Assembly (NCBI GenBank): GCA_016177805.1
Contig: JACOUN010000036.1
Span: 1 to 28,118 of the forward strand
Source of the DNA: Rhodocyclales bacterium
Lineage (GTDB): Bacteria > Pseudomonadota > Gammaproteobacteria > Burkholderiales > Rhodocyclaceae
Direction of reading: 5' to 3'
DNA: 28,118 nucleotides
Part shown: piece by piece, positions 491-25,152 of the stretch
How positions within the stretch are numbered: the stretch's first letter is position 1
Layout of the letters: each line of letters opens with the position of its first letter
The notes under the pieces: generated by a model
Told to the model about the DNA's origin: nothing
The model's database searches: none
Seen by the model: the letters and a program-made list of their open reading frames with translations, nothing else
Translations under genes and position numbers: made by a program

Positions 491-1414
491 TCAGGAGAAA
501 TCCAGGCCGAAGTACTTGAGTTCGATCTGGAGGCGGATGCAGATCCAGTCGTCCTCCTTGGCGATGCTGGCGTAGTGAGGCATGACATATGCCCTGAGAT
601 CGGCGGTCTTGCCTTTCAGCATGCTGTATGCGACGTCCACGTTGGCCGATATCGGGCCGACGAAGCTGGTGGTGACGGTAGTGAAGTTGCTGCCGAGGTT
701 GCCGCTGGCCGGCACGGGCTGGCCGGCGCTGGAGAGGATGGTCAGTCCTGACAGTTCTGCGGTGACGGCAAGGGTGCCGTCGGGGACCTGATGGAGCGTC
801 TGGAATTCCTGGGCCACCATCTTGCGCGGGTTTTCGTCCTTCACCACGTCCCTGAACTTGTAGTTGTTGAAGAACACATGGCGGCCCAGGGCCAGCACCC
901 GGAACGGTCCTTCCTTGATGATGACTTTCTTGTGCGGATCCTGGCCGGGAGCATCGAATTCCTTGGCCTTCTTCAGCACCAGGGCCATGCGTCGCAGGGC
1001 TTCGAGGATCGCACGCAGCGTTTCGGCGGTTGATCCGTGGTTGAACAGGACGATGCCCTGCTCGACGCCCCCTTCATCCAGGGGCTCGAAGTCCTCGGGG
1101 GCAAGCGTTCTGAAAAAGCCGTTCTGCAACTGCTCCCATAGCGCGGTGAAGGTTGGCAGATCTTCGTCGCGCCGGGTGATCTGTCCGTCCAGATAGCTGA
1201 CGAACCGCGAGACCAGCTCCGGTTCGGGCGGGCGGAATGCGATGGTCAGGTCGCGCAGCCAGGCGGCCATGCGCTCGGCCAGTTCGGGCGGGGGCGGTTC
1301 GCCGCGGCCGGGGAGCTGCCCGGCGCAGGCGGCGATCAGGTCGAGGATGCGGGCGCCGAAGGCAAAGGGTTCGGCCAGTGTCAGGTGGTTGTAGCTCTCT
1401 TGGTCTTGAATCAC
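491..1414 (-). CDS. Conserved hypothetical protein (about 307 aa); helical N-half, beta-rich C-half. No domain I can name.
   Basis: Long minus-strand ORF. The preferred start is GTG at 1414, preceded by GAGGGGGA 9 nt upstream; the ORF could extend to 1447. It is co-oriented and lies 116 bp downstream of rtcA. There is no GGQ motif, so it is not PrfH. I see no obvious HEPN Rx4-6H motif. Confidence 0.6.
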   Translation of the reverse strand: MIQDQESYNHLTLAEPFAFGARILDLIAACAGQLPGRGEPPPPELAERMAAWLRDLTIAFRPPEPELVSRFVSYLDGQITRRDEDLPTFTALWEQLQNGFFRTLAPEDFEPLDEGGVEQGIVLFNHGSTAETLRAILEALRRMALVLKKAKEFDAPGQDPHKKVIIKEGPFRVLALGRHVFFNNYKFRDVVKDENPRKMVAQEFQTLHQVPDGTLAVTAELSGLTILSSAGQPVPASGNLGSNFTTVTTSFVGPISANVDVAYSMLKGKTADLRAYVMPHYASIAKEDDWICIRLQIELKYFGLDFS

Positions 1415-1530
1415 GTTCGTTATCCCCCTCAAGTGGTGTGCGGGCACCGACGGCGCGCGCCGTCCGGTGCCGCAGCGGTTGTGGATGTGTTGCCATGGGC
1501 ATTATCGACATGGCCGGCACGATTTCCAGT

Positions 1531-2634
1531 TTAGATAACGCCGGGAGGAATGCAAAAGCTGGTTTGCGATTGGCATGATGACGATGGTTGCCCGGAGGCG
1601 GCAGGGTTCGCGGCAATCCGATGACCCTGTGCCGTCTTGGTCGTCTCGAAGCGCAGCGGCAGAAACCGCTGCACCACCTCCATGTTGGTTTCGAGGTGCG
1701 ATGACAGCGTGGCGGTGGTCAGGCTGCCGCCGCGCGCGAGCGCCAGCGGCAGCACCAGTTGATCGGCCAGGTGCTCGCCGACCGCGGCATCCGAGGCGCG
1801 GTCGGCGCGGGCGGCCTTGATCACGCGCGCGGCGACGGCTTCGGCGGGCAGGCCGCGTTCGCCGAAGGCGACGAACACTTCGGTCACTTCGCTGTGCTGG
1901 TCGACCAGCAGCAACGCGTTGCCTGGTCCTTCGCGAGCGGGCAGGACGCGCAGTTCAACTTCGGCACCCAGCGCGGCGGCTTCCACCATGGTCAGTTCGC
2001 GCCTGGCGACATCCACCGGCACGCCCGCGACCACGGCCACGGCGCGCGCCTGCAGCGGCGTGCCGCGCTCGCACAGATGCAGGGTCTTCAGCGCCGCGAC
2101 CGGGGTGACGCGCGCGCGGATCTCGCCCCCGCCGGCCGGGTAGAAGCCGTGGCGCAGCAGTTCGATGTCCATGTCCACCCCCATGCGGCGCATCAGCGGT
2201 AGCCAGGCGTGGATCAGGAAGTCGGCGGGCGGGGCGGCCGGGTTGTGCGTGCCGCCGCTGACCGTCACCGTGCTCGGCGCGTCGGCAAACCACAGCGCGG
2301 GGAGGATGGTTTGCAGCACCAGGGTGCAGCTACCGGCGCTGCCGATGGCGTGGCGATAGTCGCCGCCACGGATGCGTCCGGGCACGAAGTGCAGTGAGCG
2401 CGAGCCCAGCGCCGCGCCATCCACCCGCGCGCCGCAGATCTGCGCGGCGGCCTGCACGGCGGTCAGGTGCTGGCGCAGCAGCCCCGGTTTGGCGCGGCGG
2501 GCGCGGATGTGGTCGAGGCGCAGCGGCGTGCCGGTGATCATCGACAGCGTCAACGCGGTGCGCAGTATCTGCCCGCCGCCTTCGCCTTGTGAGCCGTCGA
2601 GCGTCACGGTGTCGAGCGTACAGGTGTCAGGCAT
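1531..2634 (-). CDS. rtcA: RNA 3'-terminal phosphate cyclase RtcA, with about 25 extra C-terminal residues compared with E. coli.
   Basis: LDGSQGEGGGQILRTALTLSMITG, RAKPGLLRQHLT and FAIGSAGSCTLVLQTILPALWFA match my recollection of E. coli RtcA closely. The ATG at 2634 overlaps the upstream gene's stop by 8 nt. Confidence 0.95.
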   Translation of the reverse strand: MPDTCTLDTVTLDGSQGEGGGQILRTALTLSMITGTPLRLDHIRARRAKPGLLRQHLTAVQAAAQICGARVDGAALGSRSLHFVPGRIRGGDYRHAIGSAGSCTLVLQTILPALWFADAPSTVTVSGGTHNPAAPPADFLIHAWLPLMRRMGVDMDIELLRHGFYPAGGGEIRARVTPVAALKTLHLCERGTPLQARAVAVVAGVPVDVARRELTMVEAAALGAEVELRVLPAREGPGNALLLVDQHSEVTEVFVAFGERGLPAEAVAARVIKAARADRASDAAVGEHLADQLVLPLALARGGSLTTATLSSHLETNMEVVQRFLPLRFETTKTAQGHRIAANPAASGQPSSSCQSQTSFCIPPGVI

Positions 2635-3445
2635 GGGAGTCTCCGGTCATGACGGTCTGGAGCAGGAAACGGTCGAGCGCCTCCGTGTCGCCTTGCGGCG
2701 TGCGGTAGGAAACGTCGCGGTCGACCTGCGCCAGCATGCCTTCTATGTAGGCGTGGATGGCAGGCCAGCGCGGCCCGTGCTCGGCTTCGCCGACGCGCAT
2801 CTTGACCGCCAGCAGGCGGTTGATTTCGTCGCGCAGGGTTTCGTCACTGATGGTTGCTTGCGCGAGTTCGGCGAAGCGCATCGGCGGCATGCTCCGGTAT
2901 TCGTCGATCCATTGCACCGCCAGCAGCGGGCGCAGCACGTACAGGTACTTTTTCAGACGCACCGTATCGCCCCGCAGATAGCCTTGAAAGTTCTTCTTGG
3001 CCATGGCGAGGTAGTGGTAGCGGCCGCGCATGGGCGAGAAGAACTGCGCCGCCAGCGCGCGCAGGCCGGCGGCGGCATCGGAGCGTTCGCGATAGATCAC
3101 CGGCGAGTCCAGCCATTCGAGCAGGGTCGGGTTGGAGCGGCGCAGCAGGCGCAGCGCCTTGCGCAGCTCCCAGCCGCTGACGTCCAGTTCGTCGCTGATC
3201 GGCAGTTCGATGACGTCGCGCTGCGCTTCGACGCGCAAATACCACGGCATGCGTGGCACGTAGACGAAGCGCACATCGTAGTCGCTGTCGGGCGAGGCGA
3301 AGCCCCAGCCCCGGCTCCCCGACTCGCAGGCGAACAGCACCCGCACCTCGTGGCGGGCCTCGATCTCGTCCAGCGCCTGCATCACGCGCTGGCGTACCGC
3401 CGGGTCTATCGGGTGGGCGGTGAGTATTGTGTTGCTTGTTTGCAT
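2627..3445 (-). CDS. Pol-beta-superfamily nucleotidyltransferase (272 aa); a predicted RNA-repair-associated NTase.
   Basis: The GS-x9-DxD minimal NTase signature is present in CESGSRGWGFASPDSDYDVRFVY. The gene sits between rtcB and rtcA in the same orientation. Its stop overlaps the rtcA start (ATGCCTGA), which suggests translational coupling. Confidence 0.85.
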   Translation of the reverse strand: MQTSNTILTAHPIDPAVRQRVMQALDEIEARHEVRVLFACESGSRGWGFASPDSDYDVRFVYVPRMPWYLRVEAQRDVIELPISDELDVSGWELRKALRLLRRSNPTLLEWLDSPVIYRERSDAAAGLRALAAQFFSPMRGRYHYLAMAKKNFQGYLRGDTVRLKKYLYVLRPLLAVQWIDEYRSMPPMRFAELAQATISDETLRDEINRLLAVKMRVGEAEHGPRWPAIHAYIEGMLAQVDRDVSYRTPQGDTEALDRFLLQTVMTGDSHA

Positions 3446-3482
3446 GACTATCTCTTTCGGTATGGTCGGCGGCGTGCCGTGG

Positions 3483-4724
3483 TCATCCTTTCACACACAC
3501 CACCTGACGCAGGGTGTGCACCACTTCCACCAGCTCGCGCTGGGCGTGCATCACCGCGTCGATGTCCTTGTAGGCCATCGGGATTTCGTCGATCACGTCG
3601 CTGTCCTTGCGGCATTCGACGTGGGCGGTGGCGCGCATCTGGTCTTCGATGGTGTAGCGGCGCTTGGCCTCGTTGCGGCTCATCGCGCGGCCGGCGCCGT
3701 GGCTGCAGGAGCAGAAGGCCGCTTCGTTGCCGAGGCCGCGCACGATGTAGCTGCGCGCGCCCATCGAGCCGGGGATGATCCCGAGTTCCCCTTTCTGCGC
3801 CGACACCGCGCCCTTGCGCGTGACCAGCACCTCCTGCCCGTAGTGGCGCTCGCGCTGCACGTAGTTGTGGTGGCAGTTCACCGCTTCCACGTCGGCGGTG
3901 AACGGCTTGGCGATCACCTGGCGCGCGGCGGTCACGACGTTCTGCATCATGGCCTGGCGGTTGCGCCGGGCGTAGTCCTGCGCCCAGCCGACGGCGGCGA
4001 CGTAGTCGTCGAAGTGCGTGCTGCCTTCCTCGAAGTAGGCCAGATCGCGGTGCGGCAAATCGGCGAGGTGCTGGCGCATGTCGGCCTGCGCCAGTTCGAT
4101 AAACACATTGCCGATCGCGTTGCCCACCCCGCGTGAGCCCGAGTGCAGCATGAACCACACCCGGTCGGCCTCGTCCAGGCACACTTCGATGAAGTGGTTG
4201 CCGGTTCCCAGCGTTCCAAGGTGCTTGTAGTTGTTGGTGTTCTTCAGGCGCGGGTATTTCTCGGTGATGCGCGCGAAGCCCGGCTGGAGTGCCTTCCACA
4301 GCGCGTCGACGTTGTCCGGCGGGTTCTCCCACGCGCCCTTGTCGCGGCCGCCGCGTGTCATCGTGCGGCCATGCGGCACGGCGCGTTCGATGGCGTCGCG
4401 CAGTCCGCCGAGCTGGTCCGGCAGATCGCGCGCGAGCAGGGTGGTGCGCGCGGCCATCATGCCGCAGCCGATGTCCACCCCGACGGCGGCCGGAATGATG
4501 GCGCCGACGGTCGGGATCACGCTGCCTATGGTCGAGCCCTTGCCCAGGTGTACGTCCGGCATCACCGCCAGATGGCGGAAGATGAACGGCATCCTGGCGG
4601 TGTTCATGAGCTGCGCGCGCGCTTCGGCTTCAACCGGCACGCCTTGCGTCCACATCCGGATCGGCGCGCCGTTGATCACCTCCAGCAGTTCGGAGGTCGT
4701 GGTGGTGTTGATGTTCGTTTCCAT
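3483..4724 (-). CDS. rtcB: RNA-splicing ligase RtcB (3'-phosphate/5'-OH ligase).
   Basis: Near-colinear identity with E. coli RtcB as I recall it: MWTQGVPVEAEARAQL, MPDVHLGKGSTIGSVIPT, CSCSHGAGR, PMAYKDIDAVM...VVCVKG. It is 413 aa. Confidence 0.97.
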   Translation of the reverse strand: METNINTTTTSELLEVINGAPIRMWTQGVPVEAEARAQLMNTARMPFIFRHLAVMPDVHLGKGSTIGSVIPTVGAIIPAAVGVDIGCGMMAARTTLLARDLPDQLGGLRDAIERAVPHGRTMTRGGRDKGAWENPPDNVDALWKALQPGFARITEKYPRLKNTNNYKHLGTLGTGNHFIEVCLDEADRVWFMLHSGSRGVGNAIGNVFIELAQADMRQHLADLPHRDLAYFEEGSTHFDDYVAAVGWAQDYARRNRQAMMQNVVTAARQVIAKPFTADVEAVNCHHNYVQRERHYGQEVLVTRKGAVSAQKGELGIIPGSMGARSYIVRGLGNEAAFCSCSHGAGRAMSRNEAKRRYTIEDQMRATAHVECRKDSDVIDEIPMAYKDIDAVMHAQRELVEVVHTLRQVVCVKG

Positions 4725-4755
4725 GTTCTTCTCTATCGTTTTCAGCTTGTTTGCG

Positions 4756-5895
4756 TCAGTTGCCCTTGAGTGTGACCAGGCCGTTCAGCACCTGATCCAG
4801 CCCGCCGAACACCGAGATCCGGTCGATCCGCTCCGCCACGCGCTCCAGCGTTTCCAGTTCCTTCAGGCGCAGCGCGGTCGGGTTGTCTTCCATGACCCGC
4901 GCGGTGTTGAGCAGCGAGCGGGTGGCCGAGGTTTCTTCGCGCCGGCGGATGACGTTGGCCTGGGCGGCCTTCTCCGCCTCGACCACCTGCGCGAGTATGG
5001 TGCGCATCTCGCCCGGCAGCACGATGTCCTTGACGCCGAGACTGCGGATCTCGATGCCGAATCCGGCCAGCCGCGTCACCGCGTACTCGCTCACCACCTC
5101 GTCGATGACGCGCTTGTTCTCCAGTAGTTCGTCGAGCGAACGGGTGCCCACCGCCGCGCGCAGCCCGAACTGCAGTTCGCGGTAGAGGTGTTCGACCGGT
5201 TTGGCGAGTTTCTCGCACGCCAGCAACACGTCGGCGTAACGCCAGGTCACGCCCAGGTTGATGCGCAGCGCGACCTTGTCGCGGGTCAGGATTTCCTGGC
5301 CGCTCACTTCCATGTTCTGCAGGCGCGTGTCCACCAGTTCGACCGAGATCTCGCGGTTGAAGCGCCAGTACGCCTCGATGCCGGGGTTCAGCATGCGTTC
5401 CATCCTGCCGTCCATCCTCACTATGCCGACATGGTAAGCCGGAACCTGCGCCAGCAGCACCGCGCCCAGGCCGGCCACCGGCCGGCCGCGCAGGCCGGGC
5501 TGGGTCAGGCGCATCGTCAGCGCGGCCGGCAGGGCGACCGTCTGGCGCAGATCGACCTTCTCCAGCCGGTGCGCGAGCACGCCCTTCCAGATCATGCGCC
5601 GGGTACCCGGCGGCAGGATTTCCACCAGCACGTCATTCTCGTAGCGCAGTCCCGCCTCGTCTTCGGACAGATCCATGATCTCGAAGCAGGATTCGACCAG
5701 ACGGGGTTCGCGGGCACGCAGATACTCACCCAGTTCGACATCGGTGAGCGCCGTGTCGATGCGCCATACCTGCACGCTCAGGCGGTTCATCGGGTCCCAG
5801 AAATAGTGGCGCCCGGCGCTCAGGAGGCGCACGAAATCCCCGTCCTTGAGCAAGGCGGCCTGTTCGTATTTCTTCACCACAAATCTCTTGATCAT
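4756..5895 (-). CDS. SPFH/band-7 (stomatin/flotillin-like) domain protein; first gene of the sigma54-driven rtc operon.
   Basis: The central SPFH core reads LRINLGVTWRY...GIEIRSLGVKDIVLPGEMRTILAQVVEAEKAAQANVIRRREETSATRSL, followed by a coiled-coil-like tail. I prefer the start at ATG 5895 (MIKRFVV), which has a GGAGAA SD 6 nt upstream. The ATG at 5913 lacks an SD. The gene ends 31 bp before rtcB. Confidence 0.88.
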   Translation of the reverse strand: MIKRFVVKKYEQAALLKDGDFVRLLSAGRHYFWDPMNRLSVQVWRIDTALTDVELGEYLRAREPRLVESCFEIMDLSEDEAGLRYENDVLVEILPPGTRRMIWKGVLAHRLEKVDLRQTVALPAALTMRLTQPGLRGRPVAGLGAVLLAQVPAYHVGIVRMDGRMERMLNPGIEAYWRFNREISVELVDTRLQNMEVSGQEILTRDKVALRINLGVTWRYADVLLACEKLAKPVEHLYRELQFGLRAAVGTRSLDELLENKRVIDEVVSEYAVTRLAGFGIEIRSLGVKDIVLPGEMRTILAQVVEAEKAAQANVIRRREETSATRSLLNTARVMEDNPTALRLKELETLERVAERIDRISVFGGLDQVLNGLVTLKGN

Positions 5896-6152
5896 GCTGT
5901 TCTCCAGTTTCATTCATGCGTTGCGTGAGCCGGTCAGCGCCGGCCCGGACGGACGCTTTGCGCGACACACCCAGGGAGGCGGGCGGTGAGCGCTGGGGGG
6001 AGCCACAAACGCGCTGCCCTCCCAGGCTCGCCGCCCGCCTTGCCGCGTGCGCGGCGCAGGGGTCGGTCCGGGCCGGCGACGGGGGCTTGCGCCCACCGCG
6101 ACCGGCGGTTGCTGCTTGACTGCGATGCTTCAGTCGTCTTTTGAGGACGATT

Positions 6153-6216
6153 TGGAGCGGGACTCGAACCCGCAACACGTTGCATATGCAACCGCTCTAC
6201 CCATTGAGCTATCCAG
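6153..6216 (-). ncRNA. tRNA-like element A (64 nt): canonical D-arm and T-arm, with shortened acceptor and anticodon-equivalent arms.
   Basis: Minus-sense sequence: CTGGA TA GCTC AATGGGT AGAGC G GTTGC-ATAT-GCAAC GTGTT GCGGG TTCGAGT CCCGC TCCA. The D-loop keeps the GG pair, and the T-loop TTCGAGT matches T-psi-C-G-A. The anticodon region is a 5-bp palindromic hairpin with a 4-nt loop, so no 7-nt anticodon loop exists. The acceptor helix is only 4-5 bp. It therefore cannot be a functional tRNA. Confidence 0.6.
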
Positions 6217-6265
6217 TGGTGTGCGATCCGGGAATCGAACCCGGATTTCTCAACCATGTCCGCAC
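6217..6265 (-). ncRNA. tRNA-like element B (49 nt): an acceptor/T-arm minihelix ending in an encoded ACCA, immediately 5' of element A.
   Basis: Minus-sense sequence: GTGCGGA CATGGTTGAGAAAT CCGGG TTCGATT CCCGG ATCGCAC A CCA. It has a perfect 5-bp T-stem, a TTCGATT loop and a 6-of-7 acceptor helix. The discriminator and CCA are encoded. It has no D or anticodon arms. Confidence 0.55.
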
Positions 6266-6393
6266 CATGACCGTGTCCTGCTGCCGCGGCATGCGCCAGA
6301 GCCAACGGGATTATTTCCGGGCCAGGCGCACCAGTGGGGCGGATGAACCCCGGCTCGTCGGCGTTGCAGCACTACAGCGGTCGAGCTACCCAT

Positions 6394-6410
6394 AGCGATA
6401 GGCGTGCCAG
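6394..6410 (-). promoter_or_regulatory. Sigma54 (RpoN) -24/-12 promoter for the tRNA-like/SPFH/rtcB/NTase/rtcA operon, divergent from rtcR.
   Basis: Minus-sense CTGGCAC-GCCTA-TCGCT. GG and GC are spaced exactly as in the TGGCAC-N5-TTGCW consensus. It sits 137 bp upstream of the rtcR start, as expected for an RtcR/sigma54 target. Confidence 0.6.
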
Positions 6411-6546: not shown

Positions 6547-8139
6547 ATGAAGAAGACGGTGGTGATCGGTTTTCTCGGGACTCAGCTCGACTACTCGGGG
6601 AATGGGGCCAAGCGGTGGGAGAGGTGGCGCCCCACCGTCAGCCTGTGCCAGCACGACGATCTGCTGGTGAGCCGGCTGGAACTGCTGCACGATGCACGTC
6701 GCCGGGGGTTGGCCGAGCGCGTCGCGCTCGACATCGCCAGCGTTTCACCGGAAACGCAAGTGCGCCGGGTTGAAACCGCGATCCGCGACCCGTGGGATTT
6801 CGAGGAGGTGTACACCGCGCTGCACGACTACGCGCGCGGCTACCCGTTCGACGTGGATAACGAGGACTACCTGATCCACATCACCACCGGCACCCACGTG
6901 GCGCAGATCTGCTGGTTCCTGCTGGCCGAGGCGCATTACCTGCCGGCACGGCTGCTGCAGACCTCGCCGCCACGCAAGCAGGCGCCGGCCGATTCGGTGG
7001 GCAGCTACACCCTGATCGATCTGGATCTGTCGCGTTACAACAAGATCGCGCAACGCTTCAGGCGTGAAGCCGAAGAAACCGTGACCCAGCTCAAGTCCGG
7101 CATCGCCACGCGCAACGCGCGCTTCAACGACATGATTGCGCAGATCGAGCACGTCGCCGGGCGCTCCTCCGCGCCGATGCTGCTCATCGGCCCGACCGGG
7201 GCGGGCAAGTCGTTTCTGGCCCGGCGCATCTTTGAGCTGAAGGTGCAGCGTCAGCGTTTCGCGGGTCGCTTCGTCGAAATCAACTGCGCCACGTTGCGCG
7301 GCGATTCAGCCATGTCGGCGCTGTTCGGTCACGTCAAGGGGGCGTTCACCGGGGCGCAGAGCGAGCGGCCGGGGTTGTTGCGTTCGGCGCATCAGGGGTT
7401 GCTGTTTCTCGATGAAATCGGGGAATTGGGCCTGGATGAGCAGGCCATGCTGCTCAAGGCGGTCGAGGAGAAACGCTTCTTCCCGTTCGGCGGCGACCGC
7501 GAGGTGGATAGCGACTTCCAGCTCATCGCCGGAACCCACCGCGATCTGCGGCAATGGGTGGCCGAAGGCCGTTTTCGCGAAGACCTCTACGCCCGCATCA
7601 ATCTGTGGACCTTCGATCTGCCGGGGTTGGCGGCGCGGCGCGAAGACATCGAACCGAACATCGATTTTGAACTGCGCCGCTATGCCGAAGCCGAAAACCA
7701 GCAGGTGCGCTTCAACGTCGAAGCGCGTCAGGCTTACTTGCGCTTCTGCAGCTCTGCCGAAGCGCGCTGGCCCGGCAATTTCCGCGAGCTGTCCGCGTCG
7801 ATCACGCGCCTGGCGACGCTAAGCGATGCGGGGCGCATCACCGTCGAGCATGTGCACGAGGAGATCGCCCGCCTGCGCCGCAGTTGGGGGGGGGATGAGT
7901 CCGGGGGCGGAGTGCTGAGCGCATTGCTGGGTGAGCGTGCGGAACAGATCGATCTGTTCGATCGCGCCCAGTTGTCCGCCGTGATCGCGGTGTGCCAGGC
8001 GTCGAACAGCCTGTCCGACGCCGGGCGCAAGCTGTTCGCGGTGTCACGTCAGGGAAAGAAGCAGCCCAACGACGCGGACCGGCTGCGCAAGTATCTGGCG
8101 CGATTCGGTCTGGATTGGGCTGCGCTCAGCGGCGCTTGA
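6547..8139 (+). CDS. rtcR: RtcR: a sigma54-dependent transcriptional activator with an N-terminal CARF domain, a AAA+ sigma54-interaction domain and a C-terminal HTH.
   Basis: The N-terminus (MKKTVVIGFLGTQLDYSGNGAKRWERWRPT...IASVSPETQV...PWDFEEVY...YLIHITTGTHVAQICWFLLAEA) matches my recollection of E. coli RtcR. Walker A GPTGAGKS and an ESELFGH-like SALFGH motif are present. Confidence 0.95.
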   Translation: MKKTVVIGFLGTQLDYSGNGAKRWERWRPTVSLCQHDDLLVSRLELLHDARRRGLAERVALDIASVSPETQVRRVETAIRDPWDFEEVYTALHDYARGYPFDVDNEDYLIHITTGTHVAQICWFLLAEAHYLPARLLQTSPPRKQAPADSVGSYTLIDLDLSRYNKIAQRFRREAEETVTQLKSGIATRNARFNDMIAQIEHVAGRSSAPMLLIGPTGAGKSFLARRIFELKVQRQRFAGRFVEINCATLRGDSAMSALFGHVKGAFTGAQSERPGLLRSAHQGLLFLDEIGELGLDEQAMLLKAVEEKRFFPFGGDREVDSDFQLIAGTHRDLRQWVAEGRFREDLYARINLWTFDLPGLAARREDIEPNIDFELRRYAEAENQQVRFNVEARQAYLRFCSSAEARWPGNFRELSASITRLATLSDAGRITVEHVHEEIARLRRSWGGDESGGGVLSALLGERAEQIDLFDRAQLSAVIAVCQASNSLSDAGRKLFAVSRQGKKQPNDADRLRKYLARFGLDWAALSGA

Positions 8140-8260: not shown

Positions 8261-8686
8261 TCAGACGAAACGAACCGGCAGGCCCTGCTTGTCGAACGCG
8301 AGGAAGCGCTGGATCTGGCCGTTCTCGATGTTCTTGACCATCAGTTCCAGCGCCTGCTGGGCTTGTTCGCTGGTCAGCGGGATGCCGTTCTGACCGTCCA
8401 GCGCGGCGACGAACATGACGTGCCAGTCGCGCCCGGTGGCCCTGGATTCGTCCAGCAGCGCGGCGAAGTTGGCGACTTCTTCCTGGGCCTTGTCCACGTA
8501 CATCACCGGCGAGAGCGTGCCGCCCTGGCCGCGCGAGTAGCGTTGGGCTTCGTCCGGGGTGTGTTCGCCGGGCAGTTCGGCGGTCGTGAACACGAACAGC
8601 AGCCGTTGCGGTTCGGCTTGCTGGGCGGCGACGAGCAGGAAGTCGTCGAAATGGGTCAGTTCCATGATGGCGTCCGTTGCGGGCAA
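8261..8686 (-). CDS. Hypothetical protein (about 134-141 aa), acidic and soluble.
   Basis: The ORF reads [16 protein letters not shown]...[30 protein letters not shown]. The start is either ATG 8686 or ATG 8665. It converges on rtcR. I recognise no family. Confidence 0.55.
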
Positions 8687-8780
8687 AAGCGGAATTTTAC
8701 GCGAGCCGGTGCGGCCTTGCCCGTCCGCCCGCCGGATTTGTTGGTGGTGTGCCCAACATCACAACCGCCGCACCTCTGGT

Positions 8781-9709
<929 letters not shown>

Positions 9710-9713
<4 letters not shown>

Positions 9714-10471
9714 ACCTGTACGCGATCCGTGCCATCTACCGCTTTGAAATGGCCCGCGCGTGGCGCACGCTGACGCAAAGCATCATCTCGCCGGTGCTGT
9801 CGACCTCGCTCTACTTCGTGGTGTTCGGCGCGGCGATCGGTTCGCGCATTCCCGAGGTGGAAGGGGTGAGCTACGGCAGTTTCATCGTGCCGGGGCTGAT
9901 GATGCTGGCGCTGCTGACCCAGAGCATCGCCAACGCCTCGTTCGGCATATTCTTTCCGCGCTTCACCGGCGCGATCTACGAGGTGCTGTCGGCGCCCGTG
10001 TCGTACCTGGAAATCGTGGTGGCCTACGTCGGGGCGGCGGCGACCAAGTCGCTGGTTCTCGGGGTCATCATCTTGATCACGGCGAGCCTGTTCGTGCCGC
10101 TGCGCATCGAGCATCCTCTGTGGATGGTGCTGTTCCTGCTGCTGACCACCGTGACCTTCAGCCTGCTCGGCTTCATCATCGGCATCTGGGCGGACAACTT
10201 CGAGAAGCTGCAACTGGTGCCGATGCTGGTCGTCACCCCGCTGACCTTCCTCGGCGGCACCTTCTACTCGATCAGCATGCTGCCGCCGTTCTGGCAGACC
10301 GTGACCCTGTTCAACCCGGTGGTGTATCTGGTGAGCGGCTTTCGCTGGAGCTTCTTCGGCATTGCCGATGTCGAACCGGCGCTGAGCCTGGGCATGACCT
10401 TGTTGTTCCTCGGGGTGTGCGTCGCCATCGTGGCGTGGATATTCAGGACCGGCTACCGGCTCAAGCCGTGA
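9710..10471 (+). CDS. ABC-2-type transporter permease (YadH-like), 6 TM.
   Basis: Hydrophobic 253-aa product. Its start overlaps the ATPase stop (ATGA). The ABC-2 family is assigned from size and topology. Confidence 0.88.
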
Positions 10472-10557
10472 CGGGCGCCGACCGTTGCATGCTCCGTCAT
10501 CGCGCTGCAACCTTGCTGCCATGTGACTGACATGATCGCCGCGCACACTGCGCGGCA

Positions 10558-11370
10558 ATGCGATTCAAAACAGTCTTCATCTCCGATGTCCACCTGGGTA
10601 CGCGAGCGTGCCAGGCGGGCCGTCTGCTTGATTTCCTGCGCCACCATCCATGTGATCAGCTCTATCTGGTGGGCGACATCATCGACTTCTGGTCCATGTC
10701 GCGCGGCATCCACTGGACGCGCGAGCAGAACACGGTGGTGCAGAAGGTGTTGCGCATGGCGCGTCACGGCACTCGGGTGTGGTTCATCCCCGGCAACCAT
10801 GACGAGGCCCTGCGCGACTACTGCGGATCGGTCTTCGGCGACATCCACCTGCTTGACGAAGCCATCCACACGACCGCCGACGGGCGTCGTTTGCTGGTGG
10901 TGCACGGCGACGCGTTCGACCAGGTCACCTACCACCACCGCTGGGTCGCGGTGCTGGGGGACATCGGCTACAACACCCTGGTACGCCTGAACATCTGGCT
11001 CTCGCGGATGCGGCGGTTGCTCGGAATCAGCGGCTACTGGTCGCTGGCGGGCTACGCCAAGCAGAAGGTCAAGCGCGCGCTCGAATTCGTGTTCGATTTC
11101 GAGGATTCGGTGATCCATCACGTGCGTGATCGCGAACTCGATGGTGTGGTGTGCGGACACATCCACTGGCCCGCCGTCAAGGACTGCGACGGCACGCTCT
11201 ACGCCAACTGCGGCGACTGGGTGGACTCGTGCTCGGCGCTGGTCGAGGACGCAAGCGGTGCCTTGCGAGTGGTGCGCTGGCACCCCGGCATGTCACAGCC
11301 GGTCATCGAAGAGCCGGTGGGCGAGGTGCCTGAAGTCGTACCCGAGGAGGAGGCCGCATGCGTGTCCTGA
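10558..11370 (+). CDS. LpxH-like calcineurin-type metallophosphoesterase (UDP-2,3-diacylglucosamine diphosphatase family).
   Basis: The N-terminus FISDVHLG, then GDIIDFW, GNHDE, HGD and a GHIHWPA motif. The stop overlaps the GT4 start by 13 nt. Confidence 0.8.
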   Translation: MRFKTVFISDVHLGTRACQAGRLLDFLRHHPCDQLYLVGDIIDFWSMSRGIHWTREQNTVVQKVLRMARHGTRVWFIPGNHDEALRDYCGSVFGDIHLLDEAIHTTADGRRLLVVHGDAFDQVTYHHRWVAVLGDIGYNTLVRLNIWLSRMRRLLGISGYWSLAGYAKQKVKRALEFVFDFEDSVIHHVRDRELDGVVCGHIHWPAVKDCDGTLYANCGDWVDSCSALVEDASGALRVVRWHPGMSQPVIEEPVGEVPEVVPEEEAACVS

Positions 11371-12557
11371 TGCTCAGCGATGTGTACTTCCCGCGTATCA
11401 ACGGGGTGTCCACCTCGATCCAGACCTTTCGCCAGCGCTTGCCCGAGCATGGCATCGCCACCACCCTCGTCGCCCCGGTCTACGGCGGCGAAGGCGAGGG
11501 GGCGGATGACGTGATACGCATTGCCGGGCGCGCGGTGCCGGGCGACCCGGAGGACCGCATCATGCGCTGGCGCGACGCCTGCCGGGCGGTGGACCGCATG
11601 CCGCTGGACGACTACGACGCGATCCATATCCAGACCCCGTTTCTCGCCCACTACCTCGGTGTGCGCCTGCGCCGCCGCACCGGCTTGCCGACCCTCGTCA
11701 CCTATCACACGCTGTTCGAGGACTATCTGCATCACTACGCGCCATGGCTGCCCCGTGCCGCGCTGCGCGCGCTCGCGCGCCGGTTGTCGTGCCGCCAGTG
11801 CAACGGGGTTGATGCGGTGATCGCGCCGTCGACCGCGATGGCCGGGCGTCTGCGCGAGTACGGCGTGCAAAGTCCGGTGCACGTCCTGCCCACCGGCATA
11901 CCGGTCGCGCATTACGCCAAGGGCAGCGGCGCGCGCTTTCGCGCCCGCCACGGGCTCGATCCCGCGCGTCCGCTGGCGCTGTACGTGGGGCGTCTGGCGT
12001 TCGAGAAGAACCTGCACTTCCTGCTCGACGTCGCCGAGCATGCGCGTGGCATGGGGTCGGACGTGTGCATGTTGCTGGCGGGTGACGGGCCGGCCAACGC
12101 CGCGCTGCGCGACGCGGTCAAGCGCCGGGGGCTGGGCGGGCAGGTCGCCTTCGCCGGCTATCTGTCGCGCGATGACGAACTGCCCGACTGCTATGCCGCC
12201 GCCGATGCGTTCGTGTTTGCCTCCAAGACCGAAACCCAGGGTCTGGTCCTGCTCGAAGCCATGGCGGCCGGGGTTCCCGTGGTGTGCCTGCGCGAGATGG
12301 GGGTGCGGGATGTGGTGGCCAACTGTGCGGCGGCCCGCACCCCGCCGGACGACGCGCCTGCCTTCGCCCGCGCGCTGCTCGACCTGCTGGCCGATCCGGC
12401 ACGTGGTACGGTCCTGGCGGATGCGGCGCGACAACATGCGGCGCAGTGGTCCGATACCGCCATGGCGGCGCGCCTGGCGACGTTGTATCGCCAGCTCGCG
12501 CCACGTTCCGCGCGCGCAGCTCACCTGCCCTTGCAGGGCAAACCGCTCGAAGGTTGA
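11358..12557 (+). CDS. Family 4 (GT-B) glycosyltransferase.
   Basis: The product starts MRVLMLSDVYFPRINGVS and carries the EX7E-like region FASKTETQGLVLLEAMAAGVPVV. A strong GAGGAGGAGG SD lies inside the upstream gene's 3' end. Confidence 0.88.
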   Translation: MRVLMLSDVYFPRINGVSTSIQTFRQRLPEHGIATTLVAPVYGGEGEGADDVIRIAGRAVPGDPEDRIMRWRDACRAVDRMPLDDYDAIHIQTPFLAHYLGVRLRRRTGLPTLVTYHTLFEDYLHHYAPWLPRAALRALARRLSCRQCNGVDAVIAPSTAMAGRLREYGVQSPVHVLPTGIPVAHYAKGSGARFRARHGLDPARPLALYVGRLAFEKNLHFLLDVAEHARGMGSDVCMLLAGDGPANAALRDAVKRRGLGGQVAFAGYLSRDDELPDCYAAADAFVFASKTETQGLVLLEAMAAGVPVVCLREMGVRDVVANCAAARTPPDDAPAFARALLDLLADPARGTVLADAARQHAAQWSDTAMAARLATLYRQLAPRSARAAHLPLQGKPLEG

Positions 12558-20899: not shown

Positions 20900-22132
20900 A
20901 TGACTTACTACGACAACAAAGAAACCCGTGATCCGGCTGAGCGTGAGCGTGATCTGTTCGAGCGTCTGCCTGCACAGATCGCTCATGCCAAGGCCCAAGC
21001 CCCGGCGTTCGGCCGCAGTTTTGCCGACGTCGATCCCGCCAGCGTGACTACGCGCGAGGCTCTCGCGCGCCTGCCCGTGGTGCGCAAGTCCGAGCTGGTC
21101 GAACTGCAGAAACTGGCGCGCCCGTTCGGCGGGTTCGCCGCGGTGCGCTGGGGGCGCAAATGCCATCGCGTATTTGCCTCGCCCGGCCCCATCTACGAGC
21201 CCGAATCGGACCGCCCCGACTACTACCGGCTCGCCCGCAGCATGTACGCGACCGGTTTTCGCGAGGGGGATCTGGTGCATAACACCTTTTCCTATCACCT
21301 CACCCCCGGCGGTTTCATGATGGAGACTGCGGCGCTGGCGCTCGGCTGCACCGTGTTTCCAGCCGGCGTCGGGCAGACCGATCACCAGATTGCCGCGATC
21401 GCGGATCTAAAGCCCAATGCCTACGCCGGCACGCCGTCCTTTCTGCGCATCCTGCTGGAAAAGGCCGACAAGCACGGCGTCAAGGTCAGCTTCACCAAGG
21501 CCTTCGTGGTCGGCGAGGCTTTCCCCCCGAGCGTGCGCGAGGCGTTTGCCGCGCGCGGTATCACCGCCCATCAGGCCTACGCGACCGCCGATGTCGGTTT
21601 GATCGCGTATGAAACGCAGGCCCGTGAAGGGTTGGTCGTCGATGAGGACGTGATCGTCGAGATCGTCGTTCCCGGCACCGGCGACCCGGTGGCGCCGGGC
21701 GATGTCGGTGAAGTGGTCGTCACCACCTTCAACCCCGACTATCCGCTGATCCGCTTCGGCACCGGCGACCTGTCGCGCGCCATGCCCGGCCAGTCTCCAT
21801 GCGGGCGCACCAACATGCGCATCACCGGCTGGATGGGGCGCGCCGACCAGACCACCAAGATCAAGGGCATGTTCGTGCACCCCGGCCAGATCGCCCAGAT
21901 CGTCAAGCGTCACCCCGAACTGCAGCGTGCGCGCCTGGTGGTGGACAATCCGGGGTTGAACGACGCGATGACGCTGCAGTGCGAGGTCGAATCCGGCGGC
22001 GACGCGCTGGCCCAGGCGATCGCCGCCAGCGTGCGCGAGATCACCAAGCTGCGTGGCGATGTGCTCTTTGTTGCCCCCGGCGCAATCGCGCGCGACGGCA
22101 AGGTCATCGACGACCTCCGGACCTACGAGTAG
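20900..22132 (+). CDS. Phenylacetate-CoA ligase (PaaK)-family / coenzyme F390 synthetase-like adenylate-forming enzyme.
   Basis: 410 aa with PaaK-like architecture: an N-terminal region reading LPVVRKSELVELQ, the motifs YAGTPSF and AYATADVG, and a C-terminal KIKGMFVHPGQI. Confidence 0.8.
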   Translation: MTYYDNKETRDPAERERDLFERLPAQIAHAKAQAPAFGRSFADVDPASVTTREALARLPVVRKSELVELQKLARPFGGFAAVRWGRKCHRVFASPGPIYEPESDRPDYYRLARSMYATGFREGDLVHNTFSYHLTPGGFMMETAALALGCTVFPAGVGQTDHQIAAIADLKPNAYAGTPSFLRILLEKADKHGVKVSFTKAFVVGEAFPPSVREAFAARGITAHQAYATADVGLIAYETQAREGLVVDEDVIVEIVVPGTGDPVAPGDVGEVVVTTFNPDYPLIRFGTGDLSRAMPGQSPCGRTNMRITGWMGRADQTTKIKGMFVHPGQIAQIVKRHPELQRARLVVDNPGLNDAMTLQCEVESGGDALAQAIAASVREITKLRGDVLFVAPGAIARDGKVIDDLRTYE

Positions 22133-22147
22133 GGCGGATGAGTCGCA

Positions 22148-22190
22148 GGCGTTATCCGCCGGATGATGATAGCATGCGTCGGATAACGCC
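22148..22190. repeat. Perfect 11-bp inverted repeat GGCGTTATCCG...CGGATAACGCC with a 21-nt loop, downstream of the PaaK-like gene.
   Basis: Read directly from the sequence. No T-tract follows. It could be a stabilising or terminator hairpin, or a protein-binding site. Confidence 0.5.
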
Positions 22191-22253
22191 TCGCTCATAG
22201 GATCTACTCGGACCGCGATTGCCCGGTGTGGCTGGAGTGATAAGCTGCCGCCC

Positions 22254-23150
22254 ATGCACGGTCTGCTCATCCTCCTTCCCGACTTTTCCCTGATCATGCT
22301 CGGGGCGCTGCTGCGGCGCTCGTTGCTGGAGGCCGAGGCGTTTTGGGGCGGGGTCGAAAAGCTTGTCTACTTCGTGTTGTTCCCGGCGCTGCTGTTCAAG
22401 GCGCTGGCGACCGTCGATATCGATGCGAGCGTCGCGCTGCCGATGTTCGCGAGTGGCCTCGCGGTGATGCTGGCCGGGTTCATCTACGCGTGGCTGGGGC
22501 GGCCGCTGATGGGGCTGGACAGCCTCGGATTCGCCTCGCGCCTGCAATGCGCCTACCGCTTCAACACCTACATCGGCTTCGCCATCGCGGGCAAACTGCA
22601 TGGCGCCTCGGGCATCGCGATGATGGGGGCGATGTGCGGCGCCATGGTGCCATTCGCCAACATCATGGCGGTCGGGGTGCTCGCGCGCCACGGTCAGGTC
22701 GGCCTGCTGCGCGAGATCGCGCGCAATCCGCTGGTGCTGGCCACGCTGAGCGGCGTGCTGTTCAACCTGACCGATATCCCGCTGACCGAGCCGGTCGAGG
22801 CATTCCTCAAGCGCACCGGCGACGCCGCCGTGGCGCTGGGCTTGCTCGCGGTCGGTTCAGCGCTGCGCCTGCGCTTGGGCAGCGTCGGCGGACGCTGGCT
22901 GGGCGCCGGCTGGCTGATACTCGTGAAGTTGCTGCTGGTGCCGGCGACCGCGTTCCTGATCGGGCGTCAGGTCGGGCTCAGCGGCATCGCCTTCGACACC
23001 CTGGTGCTGTTTGCCGCCCTGCCAGCAGCCAGTTCGGCCTATATCCTGGCGGTGCGCATGGGCGGCGATGGCCCTGGCGTCGCGTGGCTGGTGTCGGCAA
23101 CGACGCTGCTGGCGGTGCCGACCCTGTCGCTGTGGCTGAGCCTGTTGTAG
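22254..23150 (+). CDS. AEC (auxin efflux carrier)-family membrane transporter.
   Basis: Hydrophobic 298-aa product starting [20 protein letters not shown], with the typical two-repeat AEC organisation. Confidence 0.8.
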
Positions 23151-23154
23151 CGGA

Positions 23155-23592
23155 CTATTTCTTGCCCGGCGCGACGCCTTTGGCGTTGCCGCGCGGAGGT
23201 GGCTTGGGGGGTTCCGGCTCGGGGGTGCTCGCCTCCGGAGGGGGAGGCGTCGAGCCCTGCGCATGCATGAAGTTCCATGGCCACATCGCTGCCGCCGCGA
23301 ACGGATCGGGCGCCGCGCTCCCTTCCTTGGCCTGCGCCTCGGCGGCGTGCTCGCTCATGGCCTTGACCGCCGCCAGTGCGACGCGCTGCATCTCCAGCCC
23401 CTGGGTGGTCATCTGCAGCATGTTGAGGTTCATCTTCAACCAGTTCTCGACCGCCTTGAGATCGGCGATGCGCTTGTCCAGCTCGTCCAGGTCCACCGTG
23501 GGGGTGACCATGCCGGGCAGCGAAAAGCCCATGTTGTTCCACATGCCACGTACGAAATCGAGCGGGTCCTGCGCTGGCTTGTCCTGTGACAT
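23155..23592 (-). CDS. PhaM-like polyhydroxyalkanoate-granule-associated protein (putative): helical N-domain plus a Lys/Pro-rich basic tail.
   Basis: The product reads MSQDKPAQDPLDFVRGMWNNMGFSLPGM... and ends in the tail PPPPEASTPEPEPPKPPPRGNAKGVAPGKK. A GGAGAGG SD is present. The assignment rests on recalled similarity to betaproteobacterial PhaM, so it is uncertain. Confidence 0.6.
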   Translation of the reverse strand: MSQDKPAQDPLDFVRGMWNNMGFSLPGMVTPTVDLDELDKRIADLKAVENWLKMNLNMLQMTTQGLEMQRVALAAVKAMSEHAAEAQAKEGSAAPDPFAAAAMWPWNFMHAQGSTPPPPEASTPEPEPPKPPPRGNAKGVAPGKK

Positions 23593-23637
23593 GGTCCTCT
23601 CCCGTTGCAGTGATAGGAAATGCCATGTTACCTGAAT

Positions 23638-23676
23638 GCATGAGCGCCGCTGATCTCAGTCGGGCGACGCTCATGC
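23638..23676. repeat. Perfect 9-bp inverted repeat GCATGAGCG...CGCTCATGC (21-nt loop) between amt and the PhaM-like gene.
   Basis: Read directly from the sequence. No U-tract is present on the minus sense. Confidence 0.45.
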
Positions 23677-23684
23677 GGTCCGCG

Positions 23685-24887
23685 TTACCAGGACGTTTCG
23701 CGCTCGGCCGTGGACGAGATCTTGTGGATGGACAGGTCGGCGCCGGCGAACTCTTCCTCGGCATCCAGGCGCAGGCCGATGGCGGCCTTGATCGCGCCAT
23801 ACACCACCAGCCCGCCCGCCAGCGCGATCGCGATGCCGGCCAGTGTGCCCGCCAGTTGCGACATCAGGTTGACGCCGCCCAGGCCGCCCAGCGTGGCGCT
23901 GCCGAAGATGCCCGCCGCGATGCCGCCCCACGCGCCACACAGCCCATGCAGTGGCCACACGCCGAGCACATCGTCGATGCGCCAGCGGTTCTGCGCCTGG
24001 GTAAATAGCAGCACGAACATCCCTCCGGCGACGACGCCGACCACCAACGCACCAAGCGGGTGCATCAGGTCCGAGCCGGCGCATACCGCGACCAGCCCGG
24101 CGAGCGGGCCGTTGTGCACGAAGCCGGGGTCGTTGCGCCCGACCGCGAGCGCCGCCAGCGTGCCGCCGACCATCGCCATCAGCGAGTTCAGTGCCACCAG
24201 GCCGTTGATCGCTTCGAGGCGCTGCGCGCTCATCACGTTGAAGCCGAACCAGCCCACCGCCAATATCCACGCGCCCAGCGCGAGAAAGGGAATGGACGAG
24301 GGGGGGTGGGCGGAAATGGCGCCGTCCTTGTGGTAGCGACCGCGCCGTGCCCCCAGCAGCAGCACTGCCGGCAAGGCGATCCAGCCACCGAAGGCGTGCA
24401 CTACGACGCTGCCGGCGAAGTCGTGGAAGGGGTTGCCGAAGGTGGTTTCCAGCCATGCCTGGAAGCCGAAGTTGCCGTTCCACACCATGCCTTCGAAGAA
24501 CGGGTAGACGAAGCCGACGATGAGAAAGGTCGCGATCAGTTGCGGGCCGAAGCGCGCCCGCTCGGCGATGCCGCCCGAGACGATGGCCGGAATGGCGGCG
24601 GCGAAGGTCAGCAGAAAGAAGAACTTGACCAGCTCATAGCCGGAGTTGGTCACCAGTTCGGTGGCGCTGCCGAAGAAACTGGTGCCGTAGGCGATGGCGT
24701 AGCCGACGGCGAAGTAAGCCAGCGTCGACATCGAGAAATCGCTGATGATCTTCACCAGCGCGTTGACCTGGTTCTTCTTGCGCACCGTGCCGACTTCGAG
24801 AAAGGCGAAGCCCGCGTGCATGGCGAGCACCATGATGGCGCCCAATAATACGAAAAGAACGTCGGCCGAGGTCTTGAACTGCTCCAT
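23685..24887 (-). CDS. amt: Ammonium transporter (Amt/MEP family), 401 aa.
   Basis: The product starts MEQFKTSADVLFVLLGAIMVLAMHAGFAFLEVG, with 11 TM helices and a conserved C-terminus. Its start is ATG 24887. The six-frame ORF is over-extended to 25049. Confidence 0.92.
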   Translation of the reverse strand: MEQFKTSADVLFVLLGAIMVLAMHAGFAFLEVGTVRKKNQVNALVKIISDFSMSTLAYFAVGYAIAYGTSFFGSATELVTNSGYELVKFFFLLTFAAAIPAIVSGGIAERARFGPQLIATFLIVGFVYPFFEGMVWNGNFGFQAWLETTFGNPFHDFAGSVVVHAFGGWIALPAVLLLGARRGRYHKDGAISAHPPSSIPFLALGAWILAVGWFGFNVMSAQRLEAINGLVALNSLMAMVGGTLAALAVGRNDPGFVHNGPLAGLVAVCAGSDLMHPLGALVVGVVAGGMFVLLFTQAQNRWRIDDVLGVWPLHGLCGAWGGIAAGIFGSATLGGLGGVNLMSQLAGTLAGIAIALAGGLVVYGAIKAAIGLRLDAEEEFAGADLSIHKISSTAERETSW

Positions 24888-24922
24888 GAGTGTGCTCCGG
24901 GTATGCGTAACCGGGGGCACCA

Positions 24923-24938
24923 AGCAGATCGCGTGCCA
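24923..24938 (-). promoter_or_regulatory. Sigma54 -24/-12 promoter for amt.
   Basis: Minus-sense TGGCAC-GCGAT-CTGCT with correct GG/GC spacing, about 35 nt upstream of the amt ATG. Confidence 0.5.
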
Positions 24939-25023
24939 CAAGTGGTTGTTATTTAAATACAACGAACTGCCGTTCGGCCGCACTGCGATTGGGCGTGCAA
25001 GGCACGACCGTGGTGCGTGGCGG

Positions 25024-25062
25024 GCACCATCACGGTGCACGGCGCGCACCGTGATGGCGTGC
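25024..25062. promoter_or_regulatory. Two NtrC-type palindromic enhancer sites (GCACC-N5-GGTGC), themselves forming a larger inverted repeat, about 100 bp upstream of the amt sigma54 promoter.
   Basis: GCACCATCACGGTGC and GCACCGTGATGGCGTGC. The half-sites match the NtrC consensus TGCACC/GGTGCA. Confidence 0.45.
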
Positions 25063-25152
25063 GCCGGCAGGCTACCGTGGAGGTCGCCGTGGATTGCCGC
25101 CTACCACCGGCCGTGCGAACATCGCCGCTCCGCAGCGACCGGGGTTCGGTTG

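Follow-up and report, generated by a model that had tools for sequence, protein, structure and literature searches.

SPFH (Band-7) proteins are otherwise known as membrane cages, and in the eukaryotic vault a shell with the SPFH fold is found together with a small RNA and a TROVE protein. RtcB operons of bacteria respond to tRNA damage, and their non-enzymatic partners are Ro and Y RNA in some bacteria and a Band-7 protein with a tRNA-like RNA in others. The latter arrangement was recorded in the genome paper of Pelobacter carbinolicus (2012), where a "mutant tRNA" lies beside a stomatin-like gene, rtcA, rtcB and a divergent rtcR, and where an RNA-repair role was proposed for the gene set (PMC3543383). 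[quoted passage not shown] Passages of two further studies describe tRNA fragments that end in a cyclic phosphate as activators of RtcR (PMC7790460; PMC10159003). In this study, we analyzed one such SPFH gene and its surroundings in a 28,118-nucleotide (nt) stretch of DNA from a Rhodocyclales bacterium (GenBank assembly GCA_016177805.1, contig JACOUN010000036.1, positions 1 to 28,118 of the forward strand), hereafter called the window.

A first-pass annotation made from the letters of the window had described the SPFH protein as an uncharacterized scaffold counterpart of Ro/TROVE that comparative genomics had proposed, and the quoted literature agrees with this as far as those passages go; no structural or biochemical study of the SPFH protein was found in the literature. 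It is close to certain that the gene belongs to the known Band-7/tRNA-like RNA/RtcB RNA-repair module. Our preferred reading, which we hold at a probability of about 0.5, is that its product is a soluble ring- or cage-forming scaffold that organizes tRNA repair together with the tRNA-like RNA. The window is a clean example of a known system that had been described computationally before, and it does not represent a new kind of system.

Results

Operon structure and conservation of the neighborhood

The minus strand of the window from 1531 to 6409 is a single compact gene cluster, in which a sigma-54-type promoter is followed by a structured leader RNA of ~480 nt and by the genes for the SPFH protein, RtcB, RlaP and RtcA, with rtcR lying divergently on the plus strand (Table 1). 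The SPFH gene is the first protein gene of this RtcR/sigma-54 rtcB operon, as the first-pass annotation had read it, and it is indeed placed between a tRNA-like element upstream on the same strand and rtcB downstream. The gap between the SPFH stop codon and rtcB is 31 nt (4725-4755), and a further gap of 37 nt that had been reported fits either the rtcB-rlaP spacing (3446-3482) or the interval that separates the SPFH start from the hairpin foot in the leader (~5896-5932); the start of rtcA overlaps the stop of rlaP by 8 nt. From the promoter to rtcA, the minus strand shows no terminator-like site except for chance-level matches inside rlaP. Because of this, and because the gaps are short or overlapping, the single transcript suggested earlier is plausible. 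In an alignment of 18 intergenic regions, the TGGCA of the promoter and the downstream GC are invariant columns, and the activator itself scores 842 bits with the NCBIfam model RNA_repair_RtcR (cut-off 650).

Related loci were collected by scanning one genome per species, which gave at least 598 loci, and neighborhood counts were taken from the best 80 of these (42-71% identity; beta- and gammaproteobacteria and cyanobacteria). RtcB is encoded downstream on the same strand in 45 of the 72 informative loci, that is, those with at least 1.5 kb of downstream sequence; it lies within 1.3 kb in 43 of them and within 300 nt in 20. A divergent rtcR is present upstream in 36 loci, mostly ~610-840 nt from the SPFH start and in seven cases at 450-545 nt, while RlaP occurs in 23/80 loci and RtcA in 18/80. 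With our own model (R1), a tRNA mimic was found on the strand of the SPFH gene, no more than 700 nt upstream of it, in ~67 of 78 loci, a count tallied by hand from the R1 matches, and these include most of the loci that have no RtcB. The tRNA-like RNA is therefore a more constant partner of the SPFH gene than rtcB.

In 17 of the 80 loci the SPFH gene stands beside or inside an array of 5-28 ordinary tRNA genes (L016, L017, L021, L022, L023, L026, L038, L045, L052, L058, L060, L061, L063, L064, L069, L074 and L079). L060 carries 18 tRNAs upstream and 10 downstream, with the SPFH gene inside the array, and L064 has 25 upstream; RtcB is often nearby in these loci, and an HNH-type endonuclease is found in some. 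The window is without a long tRNA gene array. These loci resemble the long tRNA arrays ("L-arrays") of Anabaena, which, in passages of PMC8421152, are induced by translational stress together with rtcB; a term search of the main text of that paper found neither Band 7 nor SPFH nor stomatin.

The space between the SPFH gene and rtcB, which has no insert in the window, varies among relatives, with inserts that encode a small zinc-ribbon-like protein or several unrelated open reading frames (ORFs). An ORF of ~120-150 amino acids (aa) occupies this position in L004, L008, L010, L012 and L037, and its conserved Cys-rich, zinc-ribbon-like motif reads F-x-C-x-D-C-G...W-W-Y-E...R-C-x-x-C-R; other loci have unrelated inserts of 250-360 aa. 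Loci that lack RtcB have varied downstream genes, which encode a TIR-methyltransferase, an AAA ATPase, an HNH endonuclease or proteins without a family match. In an Accumulibacter locus (L039, 1018-2346), a TIR domain fused to a methyltransferase follows the SPFH gene directly, which hints that some family members occur in conflict or defense contexts. PADLOC gave no anti-phage defense match in the window for SPFH, RtcB, RlaP or a 318-aa ORF downstream of the operon.

A full-length relative with 57% identity is found in Escherichia coli (L081, CP061233.1, 4472-6925), where its gene and that of an RlaP-type nucleotidyltransferase make up a module of two genes, flanked by a DUF3811 gene and lysC. 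When genomes holding at least 80% of it are counted, this slipin-rlaP module occurs in 1,625 of 5,426 complete E. coli genomes (~30%).

Leader RNA and the tRNA mimic

The whole leader (5896-6400) folds with a z-score of -5.1 relative to shuffled sequences. Within it, tRNA-like module B of the b7a-tRNA type folds as a cloverleaf in which the D and T arms are normal, the acceptor stem has 4 bp, and a 4-nt AUAU loop replaces the anticodon loop. Module B scores 76.2 bits with R1, and ARAGORN reported no tRNA in the window. In an alignment of 17 loci, 98% of the cells at paired positions of module B are paired, against 34-45% in slid controls, and 11 of the 18 pairs show a compensatory change; the "anticodon" stem covaries at all five of its pairs. 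At the place of the anticodon loop, other loci often have a GNRA or UUCG tetraloop, or else a 7-nt loop with varying "anticodons", and we therefore regard the element at 6152-6216 as a mimic of the tRNA body rather than a decoder. This RNA has neither the 7-nt anticodon loop nor the 7-bp acceptor stem of a functional tRNA.

Directly upstream of module B lies module A, a partial tRNA-like structure; in some relatives (L008, L012), a complete tRNA-like gene, the second of the locus, stands in its place. The YrlA Y RNA family (RF02553) matched module A with 20.2 bits in Rfam, against a gathering score of 69. An RNase P cut at the 5' end of the mimic would leave a module A minihelix with a CCA-like 3' end. 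The two-hairpin domain at the beginning of the leader is supported by RNAalifold on 16 loci, with 19 pairs of which 13 have compensatory changes, and no Rfam family matched it at E ≤ 1.

Between the mimic and the start codon, a long GC-rich hairpin is predicted. The distance from the mimic to the start codon (~240-310 nt) and the hairpin foot CCCGCCGG...CCGGCCGG are conserved across loci. Rfam gave no family for the hairpin, and two microRNA matches on opposite strands (E 0.13 and 0.45) are attributed to chance. Possible roles of the hairpin are RNA processing, attenuation or the binding of a protein.

The SPFH protein is stomatin-like and lacks a membrane anchor

Pfam Band_7 (PF01145) matches residues 150-321 of the protein (E 2.8e-25; 89.8 bits, cut-off 23.6), which bears out the earlier assignment of this minus-strand ORF to the SPFH/band-7 family. 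The translation start at 5895 (MIKRF...) is confirmed by 29 homologues that begin at an aligned MLKRF, and a GGAGA is located 5-6 nt upstream. An alternative upstream ATG at 5913 was rejected, as it is not conserved and the homologues begin at the position of 5895. A profile of the family, compared with the sequences of solved structures, recovered human and archaeal stomatin (E 2e-32) ahead of QmcA (2e-18), HflK (1e-11) and flotillin (2e-4), and found no MVP chain among PDB sequences at E ≤ 10. The NCBIfam equivalogs for HflK and HflC gave 37.5 bits (cut-off 159.4) and 26.1 bits (cut-off 134.4), respectively. By sequence, the protein is stomatin-like and not HflK/C. Closer kinship to HflK/C or YqiK-type proteins, with no conserved linkage to rtcB, had been named as the result that would overturn the first-pass annotation; the stomatin match leads, and since linkage to rtcB is conserved (45/72 loci, spread over beta- and gammaproteobacteria), that annotation stands.

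The family is conserved over its full length, and its members are labeled "slipin family protein" by NCBI. It comprises at least 6,809 clusters at 90% identity, and 4,732 representatives at 50% identity were found at E ≤ 1e-3, of which 546 were at E ≤ 1e-30. No relative was found in the phage genomes searched, and nine "plasmid" matches are secondary chromosomes or megareplicons, all typed as non-mobilizable.

The Kyte-Doolittle scale gave no transmembrane helix or hydrophobic hairpin in the SPFH protein. The highest 19-residue mean is 1.53 (residues 140-158), and this segment forms the first SPFH strand in the predicted model, in line with the remark in the first-pass annotation that the N-terminus is not strongly hydrophobic. 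Among 244 full-length relatives, the median of the maximum value is 1.3, and only three exceed 2.0, each by means of an added N-terminal segment. The alignment with stomatin extends from the first SPFH strand (profile position 147) to position 354 of 377 and covers the wall helix and the cap (with the earlier A1 profile it reaches position 374 of 379); it begins just past the end of the hydrophobic hairpin of stomatin. The matched stomatin structures have 16 chains per deposited entry. An NfeD or protease partner had been thought to be missing, and none adjoins the SPFH gene in the window, where it is flanked by rtcB and the leader RNA, or in the examined loci, whose gene downstream of SPFH is rtcB, rlaP or a variable insert; no genome-wide search for NfeD was made.

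Predicted structure and N-terminal repeats

An AlphaFold2 model, which had been proposed as a check, has a predicted local distance difference test score (pLDDT) of 78.9 and consists of a beta-rich N-terminal part, the SPFH core and a helix that runs for 43 residues (295-337). The long C-terminal helix and the cap region, as predicted here, are the best-conserved part of the family. With the full model, Foldseek returned stomatin first (E 6e-15), and whole MVP chains were aligned over 400-497 columns (E 4e-11, query-normalized TM-score up to 0.48). The basic stretch RRREETSATR, to which a possible RNA-binding role had been attached, is present at residues 317-326, and no motif of the family is better conserved. 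Lying inside the long C-terminal helix and aligning with AAEGEMNASR of stomatin, it does not form an added tail for RNA binding. Being part of the equivalent of the stomatin wall helix, the motif by itself says little about RNA binding.

Residues 2-48, 70-118 and 146-193 are mutually homologous (hhalign probability 98%, E 1e-14 to 1e-15), so that the N-terminal 145 residues repeat twice more the unit with which the SPFH domain begins. The pattern of this beta unit is x-V-x-V-x-x-x-E-x-G-L-x-x-x-D-G-x-x-x-x-x-L-x-P-G...W...V-D. Longer relatives have 5 units (~525 aa; P0005, P0121, P0124, P0135 and P0142), 7 units (637-672 aa; P0224 and P0233) or 11 units (894 aa; P0238), with a period of ~70 residues, and the odd numbers (3, 5, 7, 11) suggest expansion by pairs of units. 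If the beta units build a wall, its height would vary across the family.

Homology of the N-terminal units with the repeats of MVP was considered and found no support: there was no Pfam Vault match, and no MVP appeared in the profile search or in the N-terminal Foldseek search. The latter, run with the N-terminal model against the PDB, gave nothing at E < 0.09, and its best, non-significant matches fall on stomatin, HflK and erlin chains, in each case on the N-terminal part. As these chains rather than MVP repeats are the best matches, the likeness to MVP would be one of predicted architecture, not of demonstrated repeat homology.

Feature coordinates and the remainder of the window

Table 1. 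Features of the rtc cluster and its leader RNA in the window (positions count from the first letter; the protein regions are given in residues).
Feature	Position	Strand	Basis
SPFH/Band-7 (stomatin-like, "slipin") protein, 379 aa	4756-5895	-	Pfam, profile and fold matches
Regions of the SPFH protein: beta-unit repeats 1-2, aa 1-145; SPFH core, aa 146-294; long helix and C-terminal oligomerization-type region, aa 295-379			
tRNA-like module B ("b7a-tRNA" type), cloverleaf	6152-6216	-	Rfam tRNA 40.8 bits, gathering score 29 (match 6153-6215)
Partial tRNA-like module A: acceptor-like stem and T arm (CCGGGUUCGAUUCCCGG), ending ACCA	6217-6265	-	Sequence; T arm conserved in alignment
Conserved two-hairpin domain of the 5' leader (...GGGG..CCCC / GGUGCGCC...GGCGCAUGCC)	6288-6355	-	RNAalifold; coordinates placed by hand from alignment
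Long GC-rich extended hairpin between tRNA mimic and SPFH start	5911-6122	-	Minimum-free-energy fold of 5896-6152
Sigma-54-type promoter TGGCACgcctaTCGC (GG-N10-GC)	6395-6409	-	Read from sequence; function inferred
rtcB, RNA 3'-phosphate/2',3'-cyclic phosphate to 5'-OH ligase	3483-4724	-	Pfam RtcB E 9.9e-129, full length
rlaP, polymerase-beta-type nucleotidyltransferase of RNA-repair operons	2627-3445	-	Pfam RlaP PF10127 E 5.8e-96
rtcA, RNA 3'-terminal phosphate cyclase	1531-2634	-	Pfam RTC E 3e-83; NCBIfam 452 bits, cut-off 352
rtcR, sigma-54-dependent activator with RtcR/CARF-type N-terminal domain	6547-8139	+	Pfam RtcR E 8e-87; Sigma54_activat E 1e-48

The 318-aa ORF mentioned above (491-1447, minus strand) begins 83 nt downstream of rtcA, and a sigma-70-like promoter match is located at 1501-1528. 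It was rejected as a member of the system, having no Pfam, NCBIfam or PADLOC match and being undetected in the 80 related loci, and is probably unrelated to the operon. The scanned parts of the rest of the window (8559-12557 and 20900-26115) look ordinary: next to an ABC ATPase-like ORF identified from its translation alone, they encode an ABC-2 permease, an EamA transporter and three enzymes, namely a metallophosphoesterase, a group-1 glycosyltransferase and an AMP-binding enzyme. Between 12521 and 19918, the minus strand has five long ORFs that Pfam does not match and that may be shadows of plus-strand genes.

Discussion

Considering the operon, the leader RNA and the protein together, the following mechanism can be put forward. 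Damage to tRNA would activate RtcR, as is known for RtcR of Salmonella, and RtcR would then drive sigma-54 transcription of one long RNA. The first ~480 nt of this transcript would form the structured leader holding the anticodon-less tRNA mimic, which is probably released by processing, and the first protein to be made would be the soluble stomatin-family protein. The C-terminal helix and cap region, which are stomatin-like, may mediate assembly of this protein into a ring or cage, with a wall lengthened by the extra N-terminal beta units in place of membrane anchoring. The assembly might bind or enclose the tRNA-like RNA, and the resulting particle could serve as a scaffold or compartment in which broken tRNAs meet RtcB, RlaP and RtcA, or are shielded from nucleases. 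Oligomerization is suggested by the helix and cap region, since this part is the best conserved in the family and is homologous to the cage-forming part of stomatins.

Several points weigh against this scaffold reading. Oligomerization, RNA binding and an effect on ligation are all inferred for the protein. The C-terminal 40 residues of the model have a pLDDT below 50, and the N-terminal domain (1-145) modeled alone reached a pLDDT of 65 with its first unit unresolved. RtcB is not found downstream in 27 of the 72 informative loci, two of which have it upstream, and these proportions are valid for the near family only, since the 80 loci were the nearest among at least 598. The E. coli module lacks both RtcB and RtcR in its vicinity, and its 530-nt upstream region gave no Rfam match. 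In Pseudomonas aeruginosa PA14, deletion of PaFlo8 (PA14_60630), the SPFH protein of the rtc locus, left growth, pyocyanin, proteases, virulence, motility, biofilm and peroxide tolerance unchanged, in assays that are unrelated to RNA damage (PMC13086221).

The main rival is a particle centered on tRNA and independent of RtcB, in which the SPFH protein and the tRNA-like RNA would store, shield or sequester tRNAs or would present an uncleavable decoy to anticodon nucleases, with RtcB as a frequent co-passenger in a "tRNA stress" neighborhood. The mimic is the commoner neighbor of the gene (~67/78 loci, against 45/72 for RtcB), at least 18 loci without RtcB retain a tRNA-like element, and a mimic that has no anticodon loop would be immune to anticodon nucleases. 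The 17 loci in tRNA gene arrays, including L060 with the SPFH gene inside its array, point in the same direction, as does the co-induction of the Anabaena arrays with rtcB reported in passages of PMC8421152. In contrast, the window and most close relatives have the gene within an RtcR-controlled operon, directly before rtcB, rlaP and rtcA; moreover, a decoy RNA has no obvious need of a cage-forming protein, and Rfam detected no tRNA-like RNA at the E. coli module. We therefore consider this explanation possible, though clearly less probable than a repair scaffold.

A conventional SPFH function, namely a membrane microdomain scaffold that tethers or regulates a protease or channel in the manner of HflK/C-FtsH or stomatin/QmcA-NfeD, would make the location in the rtc operon unrelated to RNA. 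Every solved SPFH assembly that was matched is a membrane-attached ring or cage, the source annotations of relatives read "regulator of protease activity HflC", and 3 of the 244 relatives have gained an N-terminal transmembrane segment; yet the protein itself has neither a transmembrane helix nor a hydrophobic hairpin, its homology to stomatin starts past the end of the hairpin, and its hflK and hflC scores (37 and 26 bits) are far from the 159 and 134 of the cut-offs. As neither NfeD nor a protease gene is adjacent in the window or the examined loci, and the conserved neighbors are RNA genes and RNA-repair enzymes, we judge such a function to be improbable. It is equally hard to favor a regulator of the Rtc response, in which the protein, with or without the tRNA-like RNA, would hold RtcB/RtcA or RtcR-activating tRNA fragments and so tune induction or shut-off of the operon. 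In favor of this hypothetical role, the SPFH protein, as the product of the first gene, would be made first, and a tRNA-binding cage could buffer the ligands of RtcR; against it, many family members occur without RtcR, which is present in only 36/80 loci and absent from the E. coli module. Passages of the relevant studies propose nicked tRNAs or tRNA halves as these ligands (PMC10159003; PMC7790460) and describe E. coli RtcA and RtcB as binding the CARF domain of RtcR and being needed for its activation (PMC9650030).

A more far-reaching form of the scaffold reading can be imagined, in which the protein would build a soluble, vault-like bacterial shell. Two stomatin-type half-cages or an open barrel, with a height set by the number of beta units (3, 5, 7, 11), would enclose the anticodon-less tRNA mimic and damaged tRNAs as a compartment for tRNA repair or protection, and such a shell would be a prokaryotic functional forerunner of the eukaryotic vault. 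We regard this form as doubtful. Any soluble RNA-associated SPFH assembly, if it exists, would extend the known uses of the SPFH fold and would have implications for how eukaryotic vaults arose and what they do. The system becomes more testable through several features of the family: the repeat array, the missing membrane anchor, a mimic that has no anticodon loop, the association with tRNA arrays and the E. coli relative, which is widespread, is 57% identical and offers a tractable experimental host.

Comparison with known systems

The stomatin/slipin (human stomatin is a 16-mer), QmcA-YbbJ and HflK/C-FtsH cages share the SPFH core, the long wall helix and the C-terminal cap region with the protein of the window, and stomatin/slipin and other membrane SPFH cages are its best sequence and fold matches. 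Unlike these, the present protein has no hairpin or transmembrane anchor, carries two extra N-terminal beta units and is found without an NfeD or protease partner in a cytoplasmic RNA-repair context. A possible likeness to MVP and the vault lies in the predicted architecture, with an N-terminal beta-rich repeat array, an SPFH-fold "shoulder" and a long cap helix, and in a soluble protein that goes with a small non-coding RNA. However, MVP has nine repeats as opposed to three units here, there is no sequence-level match at E ≤ 10, and the units resemble SPFH N-terminal strands, not MVP repeats.

Among RNA-repair operons, the Rsr (Ro60/TROVE)-YrlA/YrlB-RtcB-RtcA operon of Salmonella Typhimurium is likewise under RtcR/sigma-54 control and places a ring-shaped or scaffold protein and a non-coding RNA with a tRNA-like domain next to rtcB. 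It differs in using a TROVE protein where an SPFH protein is used here, in carrying its RNA between rsr and rtcB instead of in the 5' leader, and in the permuted fold of YrlA, in contrast to the linear cloverleaf of the window. The closest system is the Band-7, b7a-tRNA and RtcB module, whose divergent rtcR, tRNA-like gene with an aberrant anticodon region, stomatin-like gene, rtcB/rtcA and RlaP nucleotidyltransferase are all found in the window in the same arrangement. We see no essential difference between the two, and the locus is an orthologue of that module in a Rhodocyclales-like betaproteobacterium.

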